From: Thermoproteota archaeon
Lineage (GTDB): Archaea > Thermoproteota > Thermoprotei > Gearchaeales > Gearchaeaceae
Assembly (NCBI GenBank): GCA_041640715.1
Contig: JBEPZU010000003.1
Coordinates: 12,826-76,825, forward strand
Direction of reading: 5' to 3'
DNA length: 64,000 bases
Position 1 is the first letter of the stretch. Each line of letters starts with the position of its first letter. A program made the translations under genes and the position numbers. The notes under the pieces were generated by a model. That model had not been told where the DNA came from, made no database searches, and saw only the letters and a program-made list of their open reading frames with translations. Positions 1,600-27,064 of this stretch are shown here, one piece after another.

Positions 1600-1924
1600 T
1601 AATGACCGTTTTGGTAGCCGCCCTATAGTTTCTCTTATCCTTAAAAATATCGTTTATATCTTCTAATCCTTTATTTTTCAGAAATTCTCAACTTGCAAGT
1701 TTAGTATATATTGTACTTCAATTAATTCGTTGAAAAACCAATAATGCTTACTTGAATTTCTATCTCGCTAAATACGATATTAGAAATAGACGTATTGAGA
1801 TGGCTGCCTCCTAGACCAACCAATATCAAGAGACTACCATTGCTCAATATCTTTCTAGCTTGGGATATTCCACATCCTTAATTCCCAAAGGTTTTCCGAA
1901 ACCGGTGAGTACAACTGCTTTCAC
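1600..1924 (-). pseudogene. Decayed remnant of a zinc-type (MDR) alcohol dehydrogenase N-terminus.
   Basis: The minus strand has GTG at 1924..1922 followed by VKAVVLTGFGKPLGIKDVEYPKLERY and a TGA at 1846..1844. This is the classic MDR-ADH N-terminus. Downstream frames show only weak ADH-like remnants with multiple stops. Confidence 0.35.
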
Positions 1925-1950
1925 GATACTCTAAAATTTTATAAATTTCA

Positions 1951-2724
1951 TTATTTTATCTTTATTAATTTTTTAATCAACTCTGAATATGTTTCTACTC
2001 TTCTATCGTTCAACCTCTCTTTTCTAAAACCTTCTACTTTCTTAGGATCCAAATCAGCTATCAAGATGTCCTCTTCTTCTTTTGCTGAAGCAAAGATCTT
2101 AGGGATTACTACATCTTCTTTGATCTCGAAGTCTACGACTATGCTTTTACCTAGAAAACTAGGAGGTAAGAAAGTATTGGGAGAAGCTATATGAACCCTG
2201 TTTTCCAAAGCCCTTGTCAGAACATAAAGCTTCCAAGGTTCGTATCCAATATCTTTTATCCTAGAAGGTGCGAATATGATCTCTGCACCTTTGAGCACCA
2301 ATATCCTAACGACTTCTGGGTAGACCAAATCATTGCATATCGTTATTGCTATTTTAGTGTTGTTTAGTTCGAATACGTTATATTCTTCACCTGGAATAGC
2401 TATTTCCTTTTCTGCTTTGAACAAATGGACTTTATTTTGTTCACCTATGATTTCACCTTCACTATCTATCAGAAAGCTTTTAATCTCCCTCTTTCCTTTC
2501 TCTTCTACGTAATTACCTCCTGTTATGATTGCTATCTTGTTCTCCTTAGCTGCCTTTATGAAATGAGGAATGATTTCTTTGAAATTTTTAACGTGAATCC
2601 AATGCTCAGGTAAGCATGCAATCTCTGCTTCCATTGAAGAGGCCTTCTTTATTAAATTAATAGCGCGTTGCAATATCTCGTCTTTATCTCCTCTTGAATC
2701 AGGCTGGATTAAGGCTATTTTCAT
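1951..2724 (-). CDS. Carbon-nitrogen hydrolase (nitrilase superfamily).
   Basis: 257 aa. A Glu-Lys-Cys triad is recognisable in CLPEHW, KVHLF and ITICNDL, within a nitrilase-superfamily-like fold pattern. Confidence 0.75.
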   Translation of the reverse strand: MKIALIQPDSRGDKDEILQRAINLIKKASSMEAEIACLPEHWIHVKNFKEIIPHFIKAAKENKIAIITGGNYVEEKGKREIKSFLIDSEGEIIGEQNKVHLFKAEKEIAIPGEEYNVFELNNTKIAITICNDLVYPEVVRILVLKGAEIIFAPSRIKDIGYEPWKLYVLTRALENRVHIASPNTFLPPSFLGKSIVVDFEIKEDVVIPKIFASAKEEEDILIADLDPKKVEGFRKERLNDRRVETYSELIKKLIKIK

Positions 2725-2808
2725 GTCATGAGATTTCTCGAGAATAAATAAAAGCTTATTTACTTAGCTTCTATAAGATATATAGGAATATAGAGGATAT
2801 ACTTATGC

Positions 2809-2826
2809 GTTTATTTATATATAAAA
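2809..2826 (+). promoter_or_regulatory. Putative archaeal TATA/BRE-like promoter element for oxidase operon 1.
   Basis: An AT-rich tttatatataaaac element lies ~35-45 nt upstream of the ATG at 2858, in an intergenic region divergent from the nitrilase-family gene. Confidence 0.25.
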
Positions 2827-2857
2827 CTTTAAATACTTTAATTAAATTTAAAAAAAT

Positions 2858-3007
2858 ATGAAATCCCTTTTTGTAAAGAGTAAAGGAACACAAGAACATT
2901 TCGTACCTAAAGCTACAATAATTACACTAGCGATATATCTAGGTATATTAACAGTGGCGTGGATAGCTGTTTATTTAATTATGTTATCGAGGGGTGCTTT
3001 TGGTTAA
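2858..3007 (+). CDS. Unlisted 49-aa single-TM small protein, a candidate oxidase subunit IIa-like (CbaD-like) component.
   Basis: ATG at 2858 gives MKSLFVKSKGTQEHFVPKATIITLAIYLGILTVAWIAVYLIMLSRGAFG. The stop TAA abuts the subunit II ATG (taaATG at 3005..3010). It is below the 60-aa ORF cut-off, and a similarly placed ORF exists in the second oxidase operon. Confidence 0.5.
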   Translation: MKSLFVKSKGTQEHFVPKATIITLAIYLGILTVAWIAVYLIMLSRGAFG

Positions 3008-3457
3008 ATGGAGAAGCTAGAAGTATTTTTTGTAGTTGTTGTCTTGGCTTTCCTTGGTTTATTCCTTTCTTTGCTAGCATACGGAAACGTCATAGGGTAT
3101 ACTACTCCTACAGCTTGTACTATATTCCCAGAGGTGGAAATTTTTAAACCTTCTGTAGAAGAAATAGAACCGGGAGTTTACAGGGTTAAGGTCGTTGCAG
3201 CACAATACTATTTCCTTCCTGCAGAAATAAAACTGAAAAATCCTAAAAAAGTGATCTTTGAGGTTTTAAGCAAGGACGTCGTGCATGGTATTACAATAGA
3301 AGGAACAAACGTGAATTTGATGGTTTTCCCCCGTTACGTGGCTACTTTCGTATGGGAAGTACCCCAGTATATGAAAGGTACTTTCTTGATGTACTGCAAC
3401 GAATATTGTGGTTCAGGACATCAAACCATGTATGCTCACTTAATAATAGAGAGGTGA
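3008..3457 (+). CDS. Haem-copper oxidase subunit II (CuA subunit), B-type.
   Basis: 149 aa with a single N-terminal TM helix. The CuA ligand motif is present: H...CNEYCGSGHQTM. Confidence 0.85.
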   Translation: MEKLEVFFVVVVLAFLGLFLSLLAYGNVIGYTTPTACTIFPEVEIFKPSVEEIEPGVYRVKVVAAQYYFLPAEIKLKNPKKVIFEVLSKDVVHGITIEGTNVNLMVFPRYVATFVWEVPQYMKGTFLMYCNEYCGSGHQTMYAHLIIER

Positions 3458-3458
3458 G

Positions 3459-5072
3459 ATGATGGAAACAAGCTTCAAGACAGAGGATAGGTTTTCTAAG
3501 ATATCTATATCATTCGCCTTCCTAGTACTAGCCTTAGGAGGGCTTTTCGGTCTACTTCAGTTATTGACGAGGACTCCTTATTCACCGCTACAATTAGAAC
3601 CAGCTACTTATTACTTAAGCGTAACTGCTCACGGTGTGTTGTTGGCTATCGTATGGACAGCGTTCTTCATAATGGGCTTAGCAGCGTTCGTGATAACAAG
3701 GGAGCTAGGACAGAAAATTAACAGCGTATTACTTAACGTAGCTTTAATTTTAACATTGGCAGGAACTTTGATGGCGGCAATTGCCATATTAAGCGGTACT
3801 TCTAATGTGCTCTATACGTTTTATCCTCCTCTTAAAGCTAATGCTTTCTTCTATTTAGGAGCAGCTATATTATTAATCGGTACATGGATTTTCGCTGTAG
3901 CTATTTTCTTAGCGTTCTTTAACTGGAGGAAGAAGACAAAGGCTGCGATTCCATTAGCTACAATGGGAGTGCTTACGACTCTCATTGTATGGCTAGAGGC
4001 AACACCTGGATTGGCAATCGAAGTCCTTAAAAACCTAATACCCATGGCTTTATTCGATACGCCTGTAGATGCTCTTGAATCCAGGACCTATTTCTGGTAT
4101 TTCGGTCATGCTTTAGTCTACTTCTGGCTATTACCTGCTATAACTCTATGGTATTTCTTCTTGCCTAAGCTATTAAACACAACCATATATAGTGAAAAGG
4201 CGGCAAAAGCTGCTTTCATACTTTTCATACTTTTCTCCACACCTGTAGGATTACATCATCAATTCCAAGATCCTGGAGTTTCACCTCAGTATAAGTTCTT
4301 GCATACTGTATTGACCTACTTAGTGACAGTACCTAGTTTCATGACCGCGTTTAACTTGCTTGCTACAATGGAGAAGAGTTATAGAGAAAAAGGTGGAAAG
4401 TCTTTATTCGGATGGATTAAGCATCTACCATGGAAAGATGGTGTTTTTGTAGGAATAGCTGTTTCCATGATACTTTTTGCCTTCGGAGGAATTAGCGGGA
4501 TAATAAACGCAGCATATACTATTAACGCAGTAGTTCATAATACTGTTTGGGTTGTAGGACACTTCCATCTAACTGTAGGTACAGCTGTTACTCTAACATT
4601 CATGGCCGCTAGTTATGTTATAATACCTGCTTTGTTTGGAAAAGCGATGGTATTTAAACGTTTTATCTTAGCACAGCCTTACCTTTGGTTAATAGGTATG
4701 CTTATTTTCTCTACTTCGTTCCACGTTGGAGGATTATTAGGAATTCCTAGAAGGACAGCAGATATTTTATACGGAGGTTCAGCTCCTTCTAGTTGGATAC
4801 CGCTAGCACAAATAGCAGCGATAGGAGGTATTATATTGTTCATTTCAGGAGTGATATTCATCTTCAACTCAGGTTTCTCCTTGTTAAGAGGGCCAAGAGT
4901 CCAAATGGATGCAGGATCTTTATTTGAAAACAAGAACGAAGATCCTACCATTCTAGATAAACTCTCTATCTGGGTAGTTATCGCAATAGTTATAATCTTA
5001 GTGGCATACATCCTGCCGTTCATGGAGATTTATTCCAGAGGACTTTCGCCAGCCCCTCCAACGTTGCCTTAA
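3459..5072 (+). CDS. Haem-copper oxidase subunit I (ba3/SoxB-like).
   Basis: 537 aa polytopic membrane protein. Conserved His ligands are visible in HHQFQDPG and VVGHFHLTVG. The 1-nt spacing after subunit II is operon-like. Confidence 0.9.
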   Translation: MMETSFKTEDRFSKISISFAFLVLALGGLFGLLQLLTRTPYSPLQLEPATYYLSVTAHGVLLAIVWTAFFIMGLAAFVITRELGQKINSVLLNVALILTLAGTLMAAIAILSGTSNVLYTFYPPLKANAFFYLGAAILLIGTWIFAVAIFLAFFNWRKKTKAAIPLATMGVLTTLIVWLEATPGLAIEVLKNLIPMALFDTPVDALESRTYFWYFGHALVYFWLLPAITLWYFFLPKLLNTTIYSEKAAKAAFILFILFSTPVGLHHQFQDPGVSPQYKFLHTVLTYLVTVPSFMTAFNLLATMEKSYREKGGKSLFGWIKHLPWKDGVFVGIAVSMILFAFGGISGIINAAYTINAVVHNTVWVVGHFHLTVGTAVTLTFMAASYVIIPALFGKAMVFKRFILAQPYLWLIGMLIFSTSFHVGGLLGIPRRTADILYGGSAPSSWIPLAQIAAIGGIILFISGVIFIFNSGFSLLRGPRVQMDAGSLFENKNEDPTILDKLSIWVVIAIVIILVAYILPFMEIYSRGLSPAPPTLP

Positions 5073-5102
5073 ATTAATTATATTTTTTATCTTTATTTTT
5101 GT

Positions 5103-6368
5103 TTATATTTTTGTTTTTATTTCTCTAAAAAAATAAATCATTAAAATAGTATTAAGACTTCCACTTATCGTCATAAGAGTATATCTTATAAATCTAAAAG
5201 GCTCATTTGTAGTCAATTCTATATCTTTAGCATAGAAGCTTGCATCTATAGGTGCTAAAAATCGAATAAAAAACGGATTGTTAATAGCTATAAAAATGAA
5301 AGTATTAATAATTATAGCTATAAATATATTTTTTAATTTATTATCTTGATAAATGTTTGCAAAATAAATTATAGATAAAAATAAAAAATATAAAATATAT
5401 TGTTCATTAATTGTTTGTCTAAATATTAAGAAAATTATAGTAGTAATAAAAAAGGATCCTAAAATTTCCTTAAATTCTTTTGCATTATTCTTATGACGGA
5501 AATAAATAAAAGGAGTAGCTAGCGTAACAGGTATCCAAATATATGGTATGAATAAGGTGAAAACATAATATAAAGAAGAAAATAAAGAAGAATTTAAATA
5601 AAGTAAATAGTTTAATATCATGAATATATTGAACTGACCGAAAATTTTCTTGGCAAAAACATCTTCGACTGCGAGCAAAAGCTTCGTATATTGTTCGTTT
5701 AGATTAAGCATTGTCAATGATAGGAGAGGTAAGATTACGCCTAGGAAAAAGAAAACTGAAGCAAATTTCAAAAGAGATTTCCTGTTTTTCAGGAATAATG
5801 CAAAGTAAATGGGAATGTAGATGAAAGGAAGGCCTATTATCAAGAAGGCTAAAGTTATATAAACAAAGCTCATTTTAGATTCGAATTCTAACAAAGCTAG
5901 TAGGATGAAAGTTATGGCTAAGTTGTGGGGTATTCCCCAAATACTTGAGAATATTATAGGTATTGGATTGAATAACCAAAGCAATGCGGGTTTTACATCT
6001 TCATTCTTAAAGTACTTTGATCCTATTTTGTAGATCAGGTATCCATTGGCTACGTCTCCTATTATCATGGGTTGCTTGAGCATGAAGTAATAAAGGAAAG
6101 GCAAATCAATGCCTAATAATTTGTAAAGCGAATATGCTAAAGCTGAGAAATAAGCATAAAGAGGAGGATAAGCGATTCCTACAACTCCTTCATGCCAAAA
6201 GCTAACATCCGGATAAGCATTGATGAACTCATAAGGCCAATTTCCTTTAGCAATATGTTCACCAATTCTAACGAAAAGCTCGAAATCATAAGGATGTCCT
6301 GTCCAAAACGAGAATGCTTCTCTCAATAAAAGGGATAAAACTAGGGCTCTTTTGATGTCAAATTTCAT
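5103..6368 (-). CDS. Polytopic membrane protein, probably a GT-C-fold glycosyltransferase (PMT/ArnT/DUF2029-like).
   Basis: 421 aa with more than 10 predicted TM segments. The N-terminal loop, GHPYDFELFVRIGEHIAKGNWPYEF, resembles GT-C mannosyltransferase loops. Confidence 0.45.
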   Translation of the reverse strand: MKFDIKRALVLSLLLREAFSFWTGHPYDFELFVRIGEHIAKGNWPYEFINAYPDVSFWHEGVVGIAYPPLYAYFSALAYSLYKLLGIDLPFLYYFMLKQPMIIGDVANGYLIYKIGSKYFKNEDVKPALLWLFNPIPIIFSSIWGIPHNLAITFILLALLEFESKMSFVYITLAFLIIGLPFIYIPIYFALFLKNRKSLLKFASVFFFLGVILPLLSLTMLNLNEQYTKLLLAVEDVFAKKIFGQFNIFMILNYLLYLNSSLFSSLYYVFTLFIPYIWIPVTLATPFIYFRHKNNAKEFKEILGSFFITTIIFLIFRQTINEQYILYFLFLSIIYFANIYQDNKLKNIFIAIIINTFIFIAINNPFFIRFLAPIDASFYAKDIELTTNEPFRFIRYTLMTISGSLNTILMIYFFREIKTKI

Positions 6369-6384
6369 CTTTTGAAATTCAGAT

Positions 6385-8013
6385 CTAGTTTTCTACTACG
6401 TTTATGAATTCCCTTCTCTTTACGTCGAAGAGTCCTTTATCACTTATCTTCAGCTCTGGTATAACTAATAGACTCATGAAGGAAAGCGTTATGTATGGGT
6501 TCTTAAGAACACAACCTAGATTATATAGCTCTTCGTTGATCTTCACTAATTTCTCGGCAACTTGCTTAGGTTCCTCAGGGCTCATCAAACCAGCTATGTT
6601 CAATCTAAGCAAATCTTCTCTTTCCTTAGAAGCTAGAGAAAGTCCTCCACCGTTTTCTATTAACATGTTGACTGCTTTGCATAGCAATTTATCATCGCTC
6701 CCAACTGCTATTATGTTATGGGAATCATGGGCTATGCTAGCTGCAATCGCGCAATCTTTGAAGCCGAATCCTTTAACAAAACCTGTGCTTATGTTTCCAT
6801 GACCGTATCTCTCCACGACGGTTATCTTCAAGATATCTTTAGATGTATCTGTTTTCACCTCATCATCTATAACTCTCATTTCCTCAATCAAGTGTTTAGT
6901 TATTATTTGATCTTCCACAACACCTATTACGTTGACCTTTGTGCTTTTTCCCTTTGCTCTTATCTTTAGCTTATCTTCGGTGAGCAAATTCGCTCTCATC
7001 GTATTCCCAGTCACTTTGGGCTCTACTTTGAAAAGAGCTATTCCTTTTTCTGCTACTAATTTACCATCTACGAATACTTTTTCTATCTTCAAACTTCGAA
7101 GGTCATCAACGATCAGAAAATCTGCAGGATCGCCTTCTCTGAGCAATCCAACAGGTAGTCCATAATGAAGAACTGGATTCTTAGTAACGCTCTTCAATGC
7201 TTTCATCGGGTCTATTCCAAATTCCAAGACGGCCTTCCTTAGAATATAATCTAAATGCCCATTGATTAGGTCGTTGACTAAAACATCATCACCTACTAAA
7301 AAGCACTCAAATCCTTGATCTAGAAGTCTTATGAGTTCTTTCATGTTCTTAGCCGTGGACCCTTCTCTTATCATTATCTTAATCCCTAGCTTAGCCTTTT
7401 CCAAGGCTTCTTCGTAATAAACAGATTCGTGATCTGTCTCTATCCCTGCTTCTACATATTTCCTAAGTTTTTCTCCTCTAAGCATAGGAGCATGGCCATC
7501 TATCCTTTTTCCTAGTTTCTTTGCGATCTCTATTTTAGCCATCACATAAGGATCTCTTTCTATGACAGCTTCGTAATCCATCACTTCACCTAGAGCTACG
7601 ATCCTCTCAAGTTTGAAGATTTCCTCGATCTCTTTGACTCCTAGAGTTGCACCATTAGTTTCATAAACCGTAGCTGGTACACAAGAAGGTGCTGTGAAGA
7701 AAATTTTCATGGGAACTTGCTTGGAATCTTCTATCATGTACTTTATTCCCTCTATTCCTAGGACGTTGGCTATTTCATGGGGATCGGAAACAGTAGCTAT
7801 AGTACCATGGGGAAGCACTACTTCAGCGAACCTGCTAGGACATAAAAGGCTGCTCTCTATGTGAATATGAGCATCAACGAATCCTGGAATGATGTATCTT
7901 TCAAAAATTTTATCAAATTTTTTTATTTTAATGATCCTTCCTTCTTTTATTTCCAGCGAACCAGAATATATTTTATCTTCGAATAAATCTACGATATTAC
8001 CCTCTATTTCCAT
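6385..8013 (-). CDS. ade: Adenine deaminase.
   Basis: 542 aa. Hallmark motifs are IPGFVDAHIHIESS and SDPHEIANV, followed by C-terminal HD and HES stretches typical of the adenine deaminase family. Confidence 0.85.
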   Translation of the reverse strand: MEIEGNIVDLFEDKIYSGSLEIKEGRIIKIKKFDKIFERYIIPGFVDAHIHIESSLLCPSRFAEVVLPHGTIATVSDPHEIANVLGIEGIKYMIEDSKQVPMKIFFTAPSCVPATVYETNGATLGVKEIEEIFKLERIVALGEVMDYEAVIERDPYVMAKIEIAKKLGKRIDGHAPMLRGEKLRKYVEAGIETDHESVYYEEALEKAKLGIKIMIREGSTAKNMKELIRLLDQGFECFLVGDDVLVNDLINGHLDYILRKAVLEFGIDPMKALKSVTKNPVLHYGLPVGLLREGDPADFLIVDDLRSLKIEKVFVDGKLVAEKGIALFKVEPKVTGNTMRANLLTEDKLKIRAKGKSTKVNVIGVVEDQIITKHLIEEMRVIDDEVKTDTSKDILKITVVERYGHGNISTGFVKGFGFKDCAIAASIAHDSHNIIAVGSDDKLLCKAVNMLIENGGGLSLASKEREDLLRLNIAGLMSPEEPKQVAEKLVKINEELYNLGCVLKNPYITLSFMSLLVIPELKISDKGLFDVKRREFINVVEN

Positions 8014-24747: not shown

Positions 24748-26400
24748 TTAGTAGAATATGGGCATTCCCGCTAATCTTGCAAAAGAGTAGAAGTAAAGCA
24801 ATAGCAGTATTAATCCGACTATTATACAGAGCGCTAAACTACCTGTTTTACTAGCCTTTGAGGTTTTTATCTCAAAACTCGTCATTAATCCTTCAAAGAC
24901 ATTTTCTTTCTGAGGTTTTGATAAAAAGATTGTGGCTACTATGTTGAAAACAAAGAGTATTCCTCCTATTATTGCGATCAGAGCTCCTACTATTATTAAA
25001 GGAGATACCCAAGTCCATTGAGGTAAGGTCATTTCAGGATAGAAGAAAGTCCTTCGCGGACTCCCATTAAATCCAGCTACAGACATGGTTGTCGCTAATA
25101 TGAGTATACCGAAGAAAAATACGTAAGGCTGTATCTTTGCTATTTTTACACTGTAGATTTTCTTCGAAGTTAAGGCAGGTATAGCATAATAGAACAATAC
25201 CATGAAGGCCATGGTTGTTGCACCTGCCACTAGTGTATGGAAGTGTCCAGGAACCCATAAAGTATTATGGTAATTTACGTTTGGCTGTAAAGTAGTTTGC
25301 GGTTGAGCAATAATTCCTCCAAAGCCTATAAGGATTAGGCTAAGAACAGTTGTGGATATCGCAGGATTGCTCCAAGGAATTTTTCTTATCCATCCAAATA
25401 GGCTGGTATGGCCTGAAGCTCTTATTACGCTCTCTATAGCTCCTGCTAGTGCTAGCCCGTGTAGTAATGTAGGTACTGATAGGAAATGAGAACCTACACT
25501 TCCACTTGCCTGCTTGAGCGCATAGGACCATCCTGGATCTACTAAAATATGATGACCTATACCAGGTACTACAAATATAGGATATAAGACAAATGCTATT
25601 CTTGCATATCTTTCATTAATGAATCTTATCGCTGCAAGACCTGTTCCTAGAACTACTAGAGCGTATAATACAGCTATCGTAGCTGATATATTAAGGTATT
25701 GTGCATCATGACCCAATCCCCAGAAATACCATCTGTACACCATTACATTCATAGGCATCAATCCTACTCTCCATAGAAGTGTGTAGAGCATTGATATTGC
25801 ACCTTGAATCACTACTGTCAAAGCTATGATCGCAGCTATGCCAGCACCCCATGTCACTAAAGGCAAAGAACCTGTATATGCTCCTTTAATTTTTGCATTG
25901 TAAATCGTCAAGAAGAATATTATTACAGCTATTCCTGCACCTAAAGCAAATAGCAAGTATCCTACATAAAAGAGAGGATGTGCAGCCAATGGAGGATATG
26001 CAGTAAATAATACGCTTGCGTTGCCTGAAGCTACTAGTATTTCTATCATTATTTGACCTATGAGCATAAAGGCAAATGCCATCCAAGCCAAACGAATTGA
26101 GTAGAGTTCTGAGTTCAACAAAACGGCCCCTGCGAAATACACTATAGTGATTTCAGCCCATATTATCCAGAATATCAGCATGTTAATTCCGTGTAACGTT
26201 AACCAAATATAGTAATTCTCGTGGGTTATCCCTAGTACATTTATCAAAGAAGAGACCGTAGATCTCCCTCCAGCTACGAATAAAGCAGCTATTCCTCCTA
26301 TGATTATTGATAGTAATGCCATTACTAAGTTAGCTGTTATTAGTAGTCTAGTCTTATCGTATATCTTAAGATCTGCCAAAGGAGATATTCTATAGCTCAT
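24748..26400 (-). CDS. Haem-copper oxidase subunit I, second copy.
   Basis: ~550 aa with VPGHFHTLVAG and other His ligands. The listed ORF extends to 26448, but the probable start is MSYRISPL at 26400, giving an ATGA overlap with the subunit II stop. Confidence 0.9.
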   Translation of the reverse strand: MSYRISPLADLKIYDKTRLLITANLVMALLSIIIGGIAALFVAGGRSTVSSLINVLGITHENYYIWLTLHGINMLIFWIIWAEITIVYFAGAVLLNSELYSIRLAWMAFAFMLIGQIMIEILVASGNASVLFTAYPPLAAHPLFYVGYLLFALGAGIAVIIFFLTIYNAKIKGAYTGSLPLVTWGAGIAAIIALTVVIQGAISMLYTLLWRVGLMPMNVMVYRWYFWGLGHDAQYLNISATIAVLYALVVLGTGLAAIRFINERYARIAFVLYPIFVVPGIGHHILVDPGWSYALKQASGSVGSHFLSVPTLLHGLALAGAIESVIRASGHTSLFGWIRKIPWSNPAISTTVLSLILIGFGGIIAQPQTTLQPNVNYHNTLWVPGHFHTLVAGATTMAFMVLFYYAIPALTSKKIYSVKIAKIQPYVFFFGILILATTMSVAGFNGSPRRTFFYPEMTLPQWTWVSPLIIVGALIAIIGGILFVFNIVATIFLSKPQKENVFEGLMTSFEIKTSKASKTGSLALCIIVGLILLLLYFYSFARLAGMPIFY

Positions 26401-26915
26401 GGTATCACCTCTATGATACCTCTCATTCCACCATGACCGTAGCCGCAATATTCATTGCAAATAATGTAGTAGGTACCTTCCTTGTCAAATCTTATATTAA
26501 ATTTAAAAGCCATTCCTGGCATGACCATGATATTATAAACTGCGTCTTCTCCTACCAATGAGAAACCGTGCATCACATCTGTGCTAGAAACCCAAATTTC
26601 ATATTCAACTCCTTTCTTCAGGATTATCTTAGAGGGTTCCCAATAGTATTGTTTGCCCGCTAGGTATATTGGTGTTCCTGGAGGAACAGGCTTGTCTGCA
26701 AATTCCTCCATAAAAGCTTGAACAAGCTTCTCATATTCCTCATGTTCTATAGCAATTGCTGTAGCTGGTACTGCATGTTTAGCATCTGCCAAAGGCCAAA
26801 GCAGAGTAGTTAGAGCTAGTATTATTCCGATGATGAATGAAAGTGCTATCCATAGCCTTTCCTCTTTGGTGAAAGGTTTATACCACTCCTCTATTTTCTT
26901 AGGTATTACCACCAT
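26397..26915 (-). CDS. Haem-copper oxidase subunit II (CuA), second copy.
   Basis: CuA motif H...CNEYCGYGHGGM. The true start is probably MVVIPKKIEEW at 26915. The 37-codon upstream extension in the listed ORF looks non-coding in this frame. Confidence 0.85.
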   Translation of the reverse strand: MVVIPKKIEEWYKPFTKEERLWIALSFIIGIILALTTLLWPLADAKHAVPATAIAIEHEEYEKLVQAFMEEFADKPVPPGTPIYLAGKQYYWEPSKIILKKGVEYEIWVSSTDVMHGFSLVGEDAVYNIMVMPGMAFKFNIRFDKEGTYYIICNEYCGYGHGGMRGIIEVIP

Positions 26916-26917
26916 GT

Positions 26918-27064
26918 TTATGGTGGAATAGGACCTACGGGCATACCATGCATAGAGACAACTTCGATTAACGCCCATACACCGTAGGCGAACATTATAC
27001 CAATTGCAATAGCGCCCCAGAACCATAAGTTGTCCAATAACGTTGAAGATACTTTGCTTGCCAT
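26918..27064 (-). CDS. Unlisted 48-aa single-TM small protein, subunit IIa-like, second copy.
   Basis: ATG at 27064..27062 gives MASKVSSTLLDNLWFWGAIAIGIMFAYGVWALIEVVSMHGMPVGPIPP. TAA falls 2 nt before the subunit II ATG. The region is locally GC-richer, and the arrangement matches 2858..3007. Confidence 0.5.
   Translation of the reverse strand: MASKVSSTLLDNLWFWGAIAIGIMFAYGVWALIEVVSMHGMPVGPIPP

Follow-up and report, generated by a model that had tools for sequence, protein, structure and literature searches.

Does the small open reading frame (ORF) that stands directly ahead of the subunit II and subunit I genes of a heme-copper oxidase in a Thermoproteota archaeon encode a third subunit of the enzyme? 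The ORF lies in a stretch of 64,000 nucleotides (nt) from assembly GCA_041640715.1 (contig JBEPZU010000003.1, positions 12,826 to 76,825 of the forward strand), here called the window, whose positions are used throughout. It runs from an ATG at 2858 to a TAA at 3005-3007 and encodes the product MKSLFVKSKGTQEHFVPKATIITLAIYLGILTVAWIAVYLIMLSRGAFG. Its sequence, its position and its conservation make it very likely that the ORF is subunit IIa, the third and smallest subunit of a B-family, ba3-type oxidase encoded by three genes in the order IIa-II-I.

2858..3007, + strand: very probable oxidase subunit IIa gene (CbaD/CoxIIa homologue), 49 amino acids (aa), 5.4 kDa, from the ORF and homology
3008..3457, + strand: subunit II (CbaB-like), 149 aa, one N-terminal transmembrane (TM) helix and a CuA cupredoxin domain
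3459..5072, + strand: CbaA-like subunit I of the B-family heme-copper oxidase, 537 aa (536 aa if the ATG at 3462 is the start)

The small ORF and its oxidase partners

The product of the small ORF has an unmodified mass of 5398.5 Da and consists of a basic tail (residues 1-18), one TM helix (residues ~20-44) and a C-terminal RG motif. The tail is hydrophilic, with four Lys or Arg residues against one Asp or Glu, and the charge distribution of the peptide is positive-inside. The 19-residue Kyte-Doolittle mean reaches its maximum of 2.33 over residues 24-43, and the hydropathy scan detected no second hydrophobic segment in the 49-aa product. Coordinates and hydropathy agree with the initial annotation, which had described a 49-codon ORF with a hydrophilic N-terminus of about 18 aa and one TM helix. 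The sequence likewise bears out the gene junctions described there: the TAA is followed directly by the subunit II ATG at 3008 (gap of 0 nt, same frame), and the subunit II stop codon (TGA, 3455-3457) is separated by 1 nt from the subunit I ATG at 3459. The public 536-aa subunit I call P0003 starts at a second ATG, at 3462.

ORFs of this size are not informative by themselves. The ORF list of the window contains numerous spurious ORFs of 30-60 aa, and the region 5' of 2858 is non-coding and AT-rich. Because the AT-rich window holds many spurious short ORFs, ORF length alone is not significant, and the case for the small ORF therefore rests on conservation and comparison.

The partner genes were classified by searches of Pfam and the PDB. 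Subunit I matches Pfam COX1 with E=3e-89, and its best PDB matches are the ba3 subunit I of Thermus thermophilus (E=1e-99) and the B-family enzyme of Aquifex aeolicus (7deg_A, 2.5e-92); A-family enzymes match at E=2e-15 or worse. In alignment A1, consisting of subunit I and 15 relatives, including proteins named by their sources as Pyrobaculum b(o/a)3-type and Aeropyrum ba3-type oxidase, residues H58, H217, Y221, H266, H267, H368 and H370 are invariant, and with them the six His ligands of the metals and the H217-x3-Y221 motif are retained. Subunit II carries the CuA motif H..CNEYCGSGHQTM and finds the Thermus ba3 CuA domain or subunit II as its best PDB matches (E=3e-17 to 1e-16), together with Aquifex 7deg_B, while A-type subunit II chains reach only E ~4e-3. 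The Pfam COX2 match of subunit II is weak, with E=4.6e-4, just under the cut-off. By these comparisons subunits I and II belong to the B family (ba3-type).

Homology to subunit IIa and conservation among relatives

Two profiles were used to compare the small ORF with known proteins: A2, built from ten archaeal small ORFs, and A4, built from 56 family members. The top two PDB matches of A2 were Thermus ba3 polypeptide IIa (1xme_C, E=2e-5; 1ehk_C, E=2.2e-5), in an ungapped alignment reaching the C-terminal RG, followed in third place by Aquifex subunit IIa (7deg_C, E=0.058). With A4 the values improved to E=5.4e-9 for Thermus IIa and 6.9e-5 for Aquifex 7deg_C, and nothing significant beyond these two was found among 177,635 distinct PDB sequences. 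PF08113 (CoxIIa) was matched singly by 7 of the 10 archaeal ORFs and by 42 of the 56 family members, with a best E-value of 8.5e-10. BLASTP aligned the window peptide with Thermus IIa from P17-G46 to P5-G34 without gaps and with 8/30 residues identical. A profile search of 1.84 billion representatives returned 119 cluster representatives at E<=1e-3, all 36-85 aa long, with the match at or near the C-terminus in nearly all of them.

Of the residues conserved in the family, the window peptide has W35, V38-Y39 and R45-G46; across the 56 members the Trp is found in 56, the Tyr in 53, the Arg in 54 and the Gly in 53. The N-terminal motif reads P17-K-A19-T20, in which Pro and Thr are present and Gly is replaced with Ala. 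On the evidence of these alignments, ORF 2858..3007 is homologous to the IIa chains of the Thermus and Aquifex oxidase structures. A profile comparison with ba3 subunit IIa had been proposed in the initial annotation, and its outcome, with Thermus IIa as top PDB match and PF08113 matched by family members, supports the proposal.

The small ORF was then compared among related loci. Its closest counterpart, in assembly GCA_041641355.1 (locus L001), is an 82%-identical orthologue with an identical TAA-ATG junction with subunit II. IIa homologues occupy the same position in L003 (a Desulfurococcales metagenome-assembled genome, MAG), L082-L090 (fetched through subunit I, 55-75% identical), L095 (a Pyrobaculum-type contig) and L097 (a Sulfolobales MAG). 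The orthologues are 33-82% identical, with a gap to subunit II of -4 to +6 nt in L001, L003, L082-L085, L088, L095 and L097; in L086, L087 and L090 a single-helix small ORF lies within ~35 nt of subunit II. The archaeal small ORFs share the pattern (P)-x-G-T ... Y/F ... W-x-x-V-Y ... R-G, except that those of L086, L087 and L090 end in ...SGGGIS, not R-G. The Pyrobaculum aerophilum homologue has 41 aa, MASKKEFEAKGTLTVMLIYASIFAILWFVIYAITLARGIVG.

The frame relation between the two genes bears on whether they are separate at all. The small ORF and subunit II share a frame in the window and L001, where only the TAA parts them, and some B-family oxidases have a two-helix subunit II (PMC3128077), so that the small ORF might be read as the first TM helix of such a subunit, with the TAA arising from error, nonsense mutation or read-through. 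This is very improbable. The two ORFs overlap by 1 nt (TAATG) in L082 and L088 and by 4 nt (ATGA) in L083-L085, and are 3-6 nt apart in L003, L095 and L097. The frame relation to subunit II thus varies among loci, and the ORFs are therefore separate, translationally coupled cistrons; this separation is what has been conserved. Two independent assemblies show the TAA, and the IIa signature (P-x-[G/A]-T, W and the RG end) is reportedly absent from two-helix subunit II (PMC3128077). In the solved structures, moreover, the IIa and subunit II helices are parallel (PMC3141039), whereas a fusion with a short linker would tend to form an antiparallel hairpin. Read-through or fusion was rejected as an account of the in-frame TAA on the ground that relatives have IIa and II in different frames.

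The ratio of nonsynonymous to synonymous substitution (dN/dS) of the small ORF is 0.15-0.69, below 1 in 7/7 pairwise comparisons. Relatives keep the position, frame and sequence of ORF 2858..3007 as well as its tight junction, which a check suggested in the initial annotation had sought to establish, and the ORF is a conserved gene that codes for protein.

Divergence between the window and L001 is a mosaic across window positions 1801..8000. No mismatches are found across 3801-5400 (most of subunit I) and 6201-7800, and 4-15% mismatches across 1801-3400 (hydrolase gene, promoter, IIa and subunit II); the synonymous divergence (dS) is 0.16 for IIa and II and 0.013 for subunit I. This suggests either recent recombination between strains or a chimeric MAG assembly.

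To survey position across B-family loci, a hidden Markov model (HMM) of archaeal IIa was run against 22,015 six-frame open segments from the window and 97 fetched B-family loci (E<=0.01). Exactly one match was found per locus in 77 loci, all on the oxidase strand, with no matches elsewhere in the 22,015 segments. In 75 of the 77, the end of the match and the start of subunit I are 448-719 nt apart (median 511 nt), a distance of one subunit-II gene length. The sole match in the window is at 2873-3004. Gene position is thus that of IIa genes, before a one-helix subunit II. IIa was previously described as widespread upstream of one-helix subunit II genes, with a conserved Gly, a conserved Trp and the motif P-X1-3-G-T/A (Prunetti et al. 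2011, PMC3128077), being present in 27/36 B-type operons and always with a one-helix subunit II (PMC3128077); our six-frame survey reproduces that work on a larger sample. The cbaD-cbaB-cbaA-like operon with an IIa equivalent that the initial annotation had proposed is in agreement with the profile results, the conservation and the B-family partners.

The same survey yielded further observations on individual loci. The HMM matched the haloarchaeal loci L047, L056, L059, L074, L079 and L080; in L047, L059, L079 and L080 the match lies at the C-terminal end of a long segment (residues ~135-313), consistent with the halocyanin-IIa fusions reported in PMC3128077. In Aeropyrum pernix (L096, 2505..2834) and an Aeropyrum MAG (L004, 3505..3825), an ORF of ~106-109 aa, Gly/Ala-rich and with several TM helices, precedes the ba3-type subunit I. 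In neither locus does a gene for subunit II or IIa stand immediately ahead of subunit I, and neither gave a match to the IIa HMM; operon layout therefore differs within Thermoproteota. In L095 (1..4674), IIa-II-I directly follows Rieske and cytochrome b genes and is followed by SCO1/SenC, NosL and NosD, a gene order that suggests a bc-oxidase gene cluster. The first oxidase operon of the window has no Rieske, cytochrome b, SCO1/SenC, NosL or NosD neighbours.

Candidate expression signals, proposed role and a second operon

The IIa-II-I operon stands alone between its two neighbours, a CN-hydrolase gene on its 5' side (1951..2724, minus strand, divergently transcribed) and a membrane-protein gene on its 3' side (5103..6368, minus strand, convergent). 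Scans of the window for Rfam families and tRNAs returned nothing. Candidate expression signals in the operon are as follows.

2828..2835, + strand: TATA-box-like element TTTAAATA, 30 to 23 nt before the IIa ATG, read from the sequence
2990..2996, + strand: Shine-Dalgarno-like AGGGGTG in the codons of Arg45-Gly46, 11 nt before the subunit II ATG
3451..3457, + strand: Shine-Dalgarno-like GAGGTGA overlapping the subunit II stop, a putative signal for subunit I

The reading of 2828..2835 as a TATA box leans on what is known of crenarchaeal promoters. A TTTAAA(T)A-type box is found ~25-32 nt before the small-ORF start in L001, L082, L083, L084, L085, L088, L089 and L095, and the DNA upstream of the small ORF is otherwise diverged in these eight loci. 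TTTAAATA is likely the archaeal promoter of a leaderless or near-leaderless IIa-II-I transcript. Transcription would probably start from this box, ~27 nt upstream, to give a leaderless mRNA with the IIa ATG as its first codon, and subunits II and I would be translated by tight coupling through the 0-nt and 1-nt gaps and the Shine-Dalgarno-like GGTG motifs. AGRGGTG is found 7-11 nt before the subunit II start in L001, L082, L083, L085 and L088. The Arg-Gly codons may thus double as protein motif and subunit II translation signal; the AGRGGTG motif could also arise from codon usage alone.

These features are also those of a regulatory upstream ORF or leader peptide that controls subunits II and I and forms no part of the enzyme: the small ORF is the first cistron, it is tightly coupled to subunit II, and the codons of its C-terminal RG resemble a Shine-Dalgarno sequence for that gene. 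Such a function is nevertheless most unlikely. Regulatory leader peptides do not as a rule retain, from one phylum to another, a hydrophobic helix that has a conserved face and an invariant Trp, and the homologues are stoichiometric subunits in the solved Thermus and Aquifex enzymes (PMC3141039, PMC8251803).

Several points weigh against the assignment to subunit IIa. Searched by itself, the 49-aa sequence gives no PF08113 match at E up to 10 and no PDB chain by phmmer, a failure probably due to its short length and the HMMER filters. Its placement in the IIa family comes from the clade profile together with synteny and a single weak pairwise alignment. Ala19 (codon 2912..2914) replaces the P-x-G-T Gly held by 55/56 members; it is the sole such case and the only departure from the family definition, and the orthologue in L001 keeps the Gly (PKGT). 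The dN/dS of the small ORF is above that of subunits II and I (0.08-0.26), on few sites; such looser constraint is to be expected of a short helix that is exposed to lipid and carries a variable tail. The promoter and the leaderless transcript, finally, are only what we infer from the sequence.

The search failures could also be explained by a genuine membrane subunit of the oxidase that is a positional analogue, unrelated by descent to CbaD/IIa, and short TM helices can align by composition. Such an origin is highly unlikely: the profile picks both structurally defined IIa peptides and no other TM helix from the PDB set, the ungapped alignment is anchored on P, G/A-T, W, Y and RG and not on hydrophobic composition, and intermediates connect the clade to PF08113. 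That the ORF is an untranslated chance opening in an AT-rich promoter or 5' leader, of which the many spurious ORFs and the non-coding upstream DNA might be taken as signs, is extremely unlikely, as frame, length class and motif are kept across Bacteria and Archaea down to loci with subunit I only 40-55% identical, no frame-breaking changes were seen in homologues, crystal and cryo-EM structures contain a peptide homologous to the clade profile, and dN/dS is below 1.

As subunit IIa, the peptide would, by homology, cross the membrane once as a helix, from a cytoplasmic N-terminus to an external C-terminus. In Thermus ba3 the TM helix of IIa and that of subunit II run parallel (PMC3141039), and IIa stands in place of TM1 of A-type subunit II, in the opposite orientation, with contacts to subunit I and lipids (PMC8251803). 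The window peptide is accordingly modelled by homology as parallel to the single subunit II TM helix, packed on subunit I, and would take the site of the first TM helix of A-family subunit II. Its role would be structural and non-catalytic, to anchor or stabilise the subunit I-II assembly and the lipid interface. The predicted N-in/C-out orientation is consistent with the positive-inside charge bias. Conservation within the TM segment shows helical periodicity, with a moment maximum at 90-100 degrees (shuffle p=0.012), and the conserved face comprises L24, Y27, L31, W35, V38/Y39 and L42/L43, as expected if one side of the predicted helix faces protein.

In Aquifex IIa, Glu39, just before the RG, ligates naphthoquinone at the dimer interface (PMC8251803). 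An Aquifex-type quinol-binding role was rejected for the window peptide, in which this Glu is absent and Ser44 takes its place. A broader idea is speculative and unlikely: that IIa of the Thermoproteota type, with its long basic cytoplasmic tail conserved in the clade (..K..EF.P.GT) and the Gly-to-Ala change unique to the window, might dock a clade-specific partner or a lipid or quinone beyond filling the missing-helix site, in the way that Aquifex IIa docks naphthoquinol. The missing quinone-ligating Glu and the poor conservation of the basic tail across the wider family speak against it. Such docking could, if true, be part of the explanation of how a CuA oxidase is supplied in archaea largely without c-type cytochromes.

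A second, divergent B-family-like oxidase operon lies at 24748..27064 on the minus strand of the window.

24748..26448, - strand: second-operon subunit I, E=1.6e-48 to Thermus ba3, 31% identical to subunit I of the first operon
26397..27026 as listed, - strand: second-operon CuA subunit II, with the likely true start at ATG 26915, giving 172 aa and one TM helix
26918..27064, - strand: second-operon small ORF, 48 aa, single TM helix, MASKVSSTLLDNLWFWGAIAIGIMFAYGVWALIEVVSMHGMPVGPIPP

The 48-aa ORF ends 2 nt before ATG 26915, in the position of IIa. It has no IIa motif, with an hhalign probability of 0.1% and no IIa HMM match, and the only match of a word-based search in 5.8 billion proteins was the ORF itself. 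No close relatives of the second operon were present among the fetched loci. The 48-aa ORF may be a non-homologous or highly diverged analogue of IIa.

Comparison with known oxidases

Subunit IIa has already been described, as Pfam PF08113, Thermus CbaD and Aquifex IIa, and the finding made here is correct but ordinary. The initial annotation had presented the ORF as unlisted and such ORFs as routinely missed, and neither holds for this clade: the exact 49-aa protein is in a public NCBI-derived protein set (P0001, on a 98,206-bp contig), where it has no name, its 82%-identical orthologue is likewise in the public collection, and all eight small ORFs of this clade that were looked up had already been called in public sets, mostly as 'hypothetical protein'. 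For one Thermoproteota relative, MFZ8849624.1 (P0130), which shares its 90% cluster with the L083 ORF, NCBI gives the name 'cytochrome c oxidase subunit 2A'. The IIa genes of this clade are under-named rather than missed. No NCBIfam model matches these peptides, and PF08113 misses the window sequence; a profile including the archaeal clade would mend the naming. The present comparison allows the name subunit IIa (2A) to be given to the 49-aa protein and to its relatives in Thermoproteota MAGs and Pyrobaculum, most of which are listed as 'hypothetical', and the window oxidase is to be modelled as a three-subunit enzyme. The published IIa survey covered bacteria and haloarchaea, its archaeal examples being all haloarchaea (PMC3128077), and a literature search covering part of the field found no description of IIa in Thermoproteota. 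The survey is thus extended to Thermoproteota, with the understanding of B-family oxidases unchanged.

Among known systems, CbaD of Thermus thermophilus (1EHK/1XME chain C, 33-34 aa) likewise has one TM helix, and its gene precedes those of a one-helix CuA subunit II and a B-family subunit I. The two peptides align without gaps from P-K-[G/A]-[A/T] via W-x-x-V-Y to R-G. The window peptide is 15 aa longer: 16 residues of basic tail precede the motif Pro, where Thermus has 4, and AFG is added at the C-terminus; the two share 8/30 residues, the motif Gly is Ala in the window, and the host is archaeal (Thermoproteota) rather than bacterial. Aquifex aeolicus IIa (41 aa, 7DEG chain C) is encoded by a small, 'elusive' or unannotated ORF before coxB2 and has the same motif set (PMC3128077). 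It is of similar length class (41 vs 49 aa) and differs at the position of Ser44, where Aquifex has Glu39 and the family mostly S, A or N.

The haloarchaeal CbaD proteins (Natronomonas pharaonis ba3, Haloferax) are archaeal IIa homologues in the same operon position (PMC3128077). They are 53-78 aa long or fused to halocyanin (PMC3128077), compared with 49 aa in the window, and end in ...FVEFLGG/NGP, whereas the window peptide ends in ...SRG, like the bacterial and Pyrobaculum 'RG-end' type. In A-family oxidases, the place of IIa is occupied by TM1 of subunit II, as in Paracoccus aa3 (1AR1 chain B; PMC8251803, PMC3141039). Unlike IIa, TM1 belongs to the subunit II chain itself; it is oriented the opposite way and has no sequence similarity to IIa.

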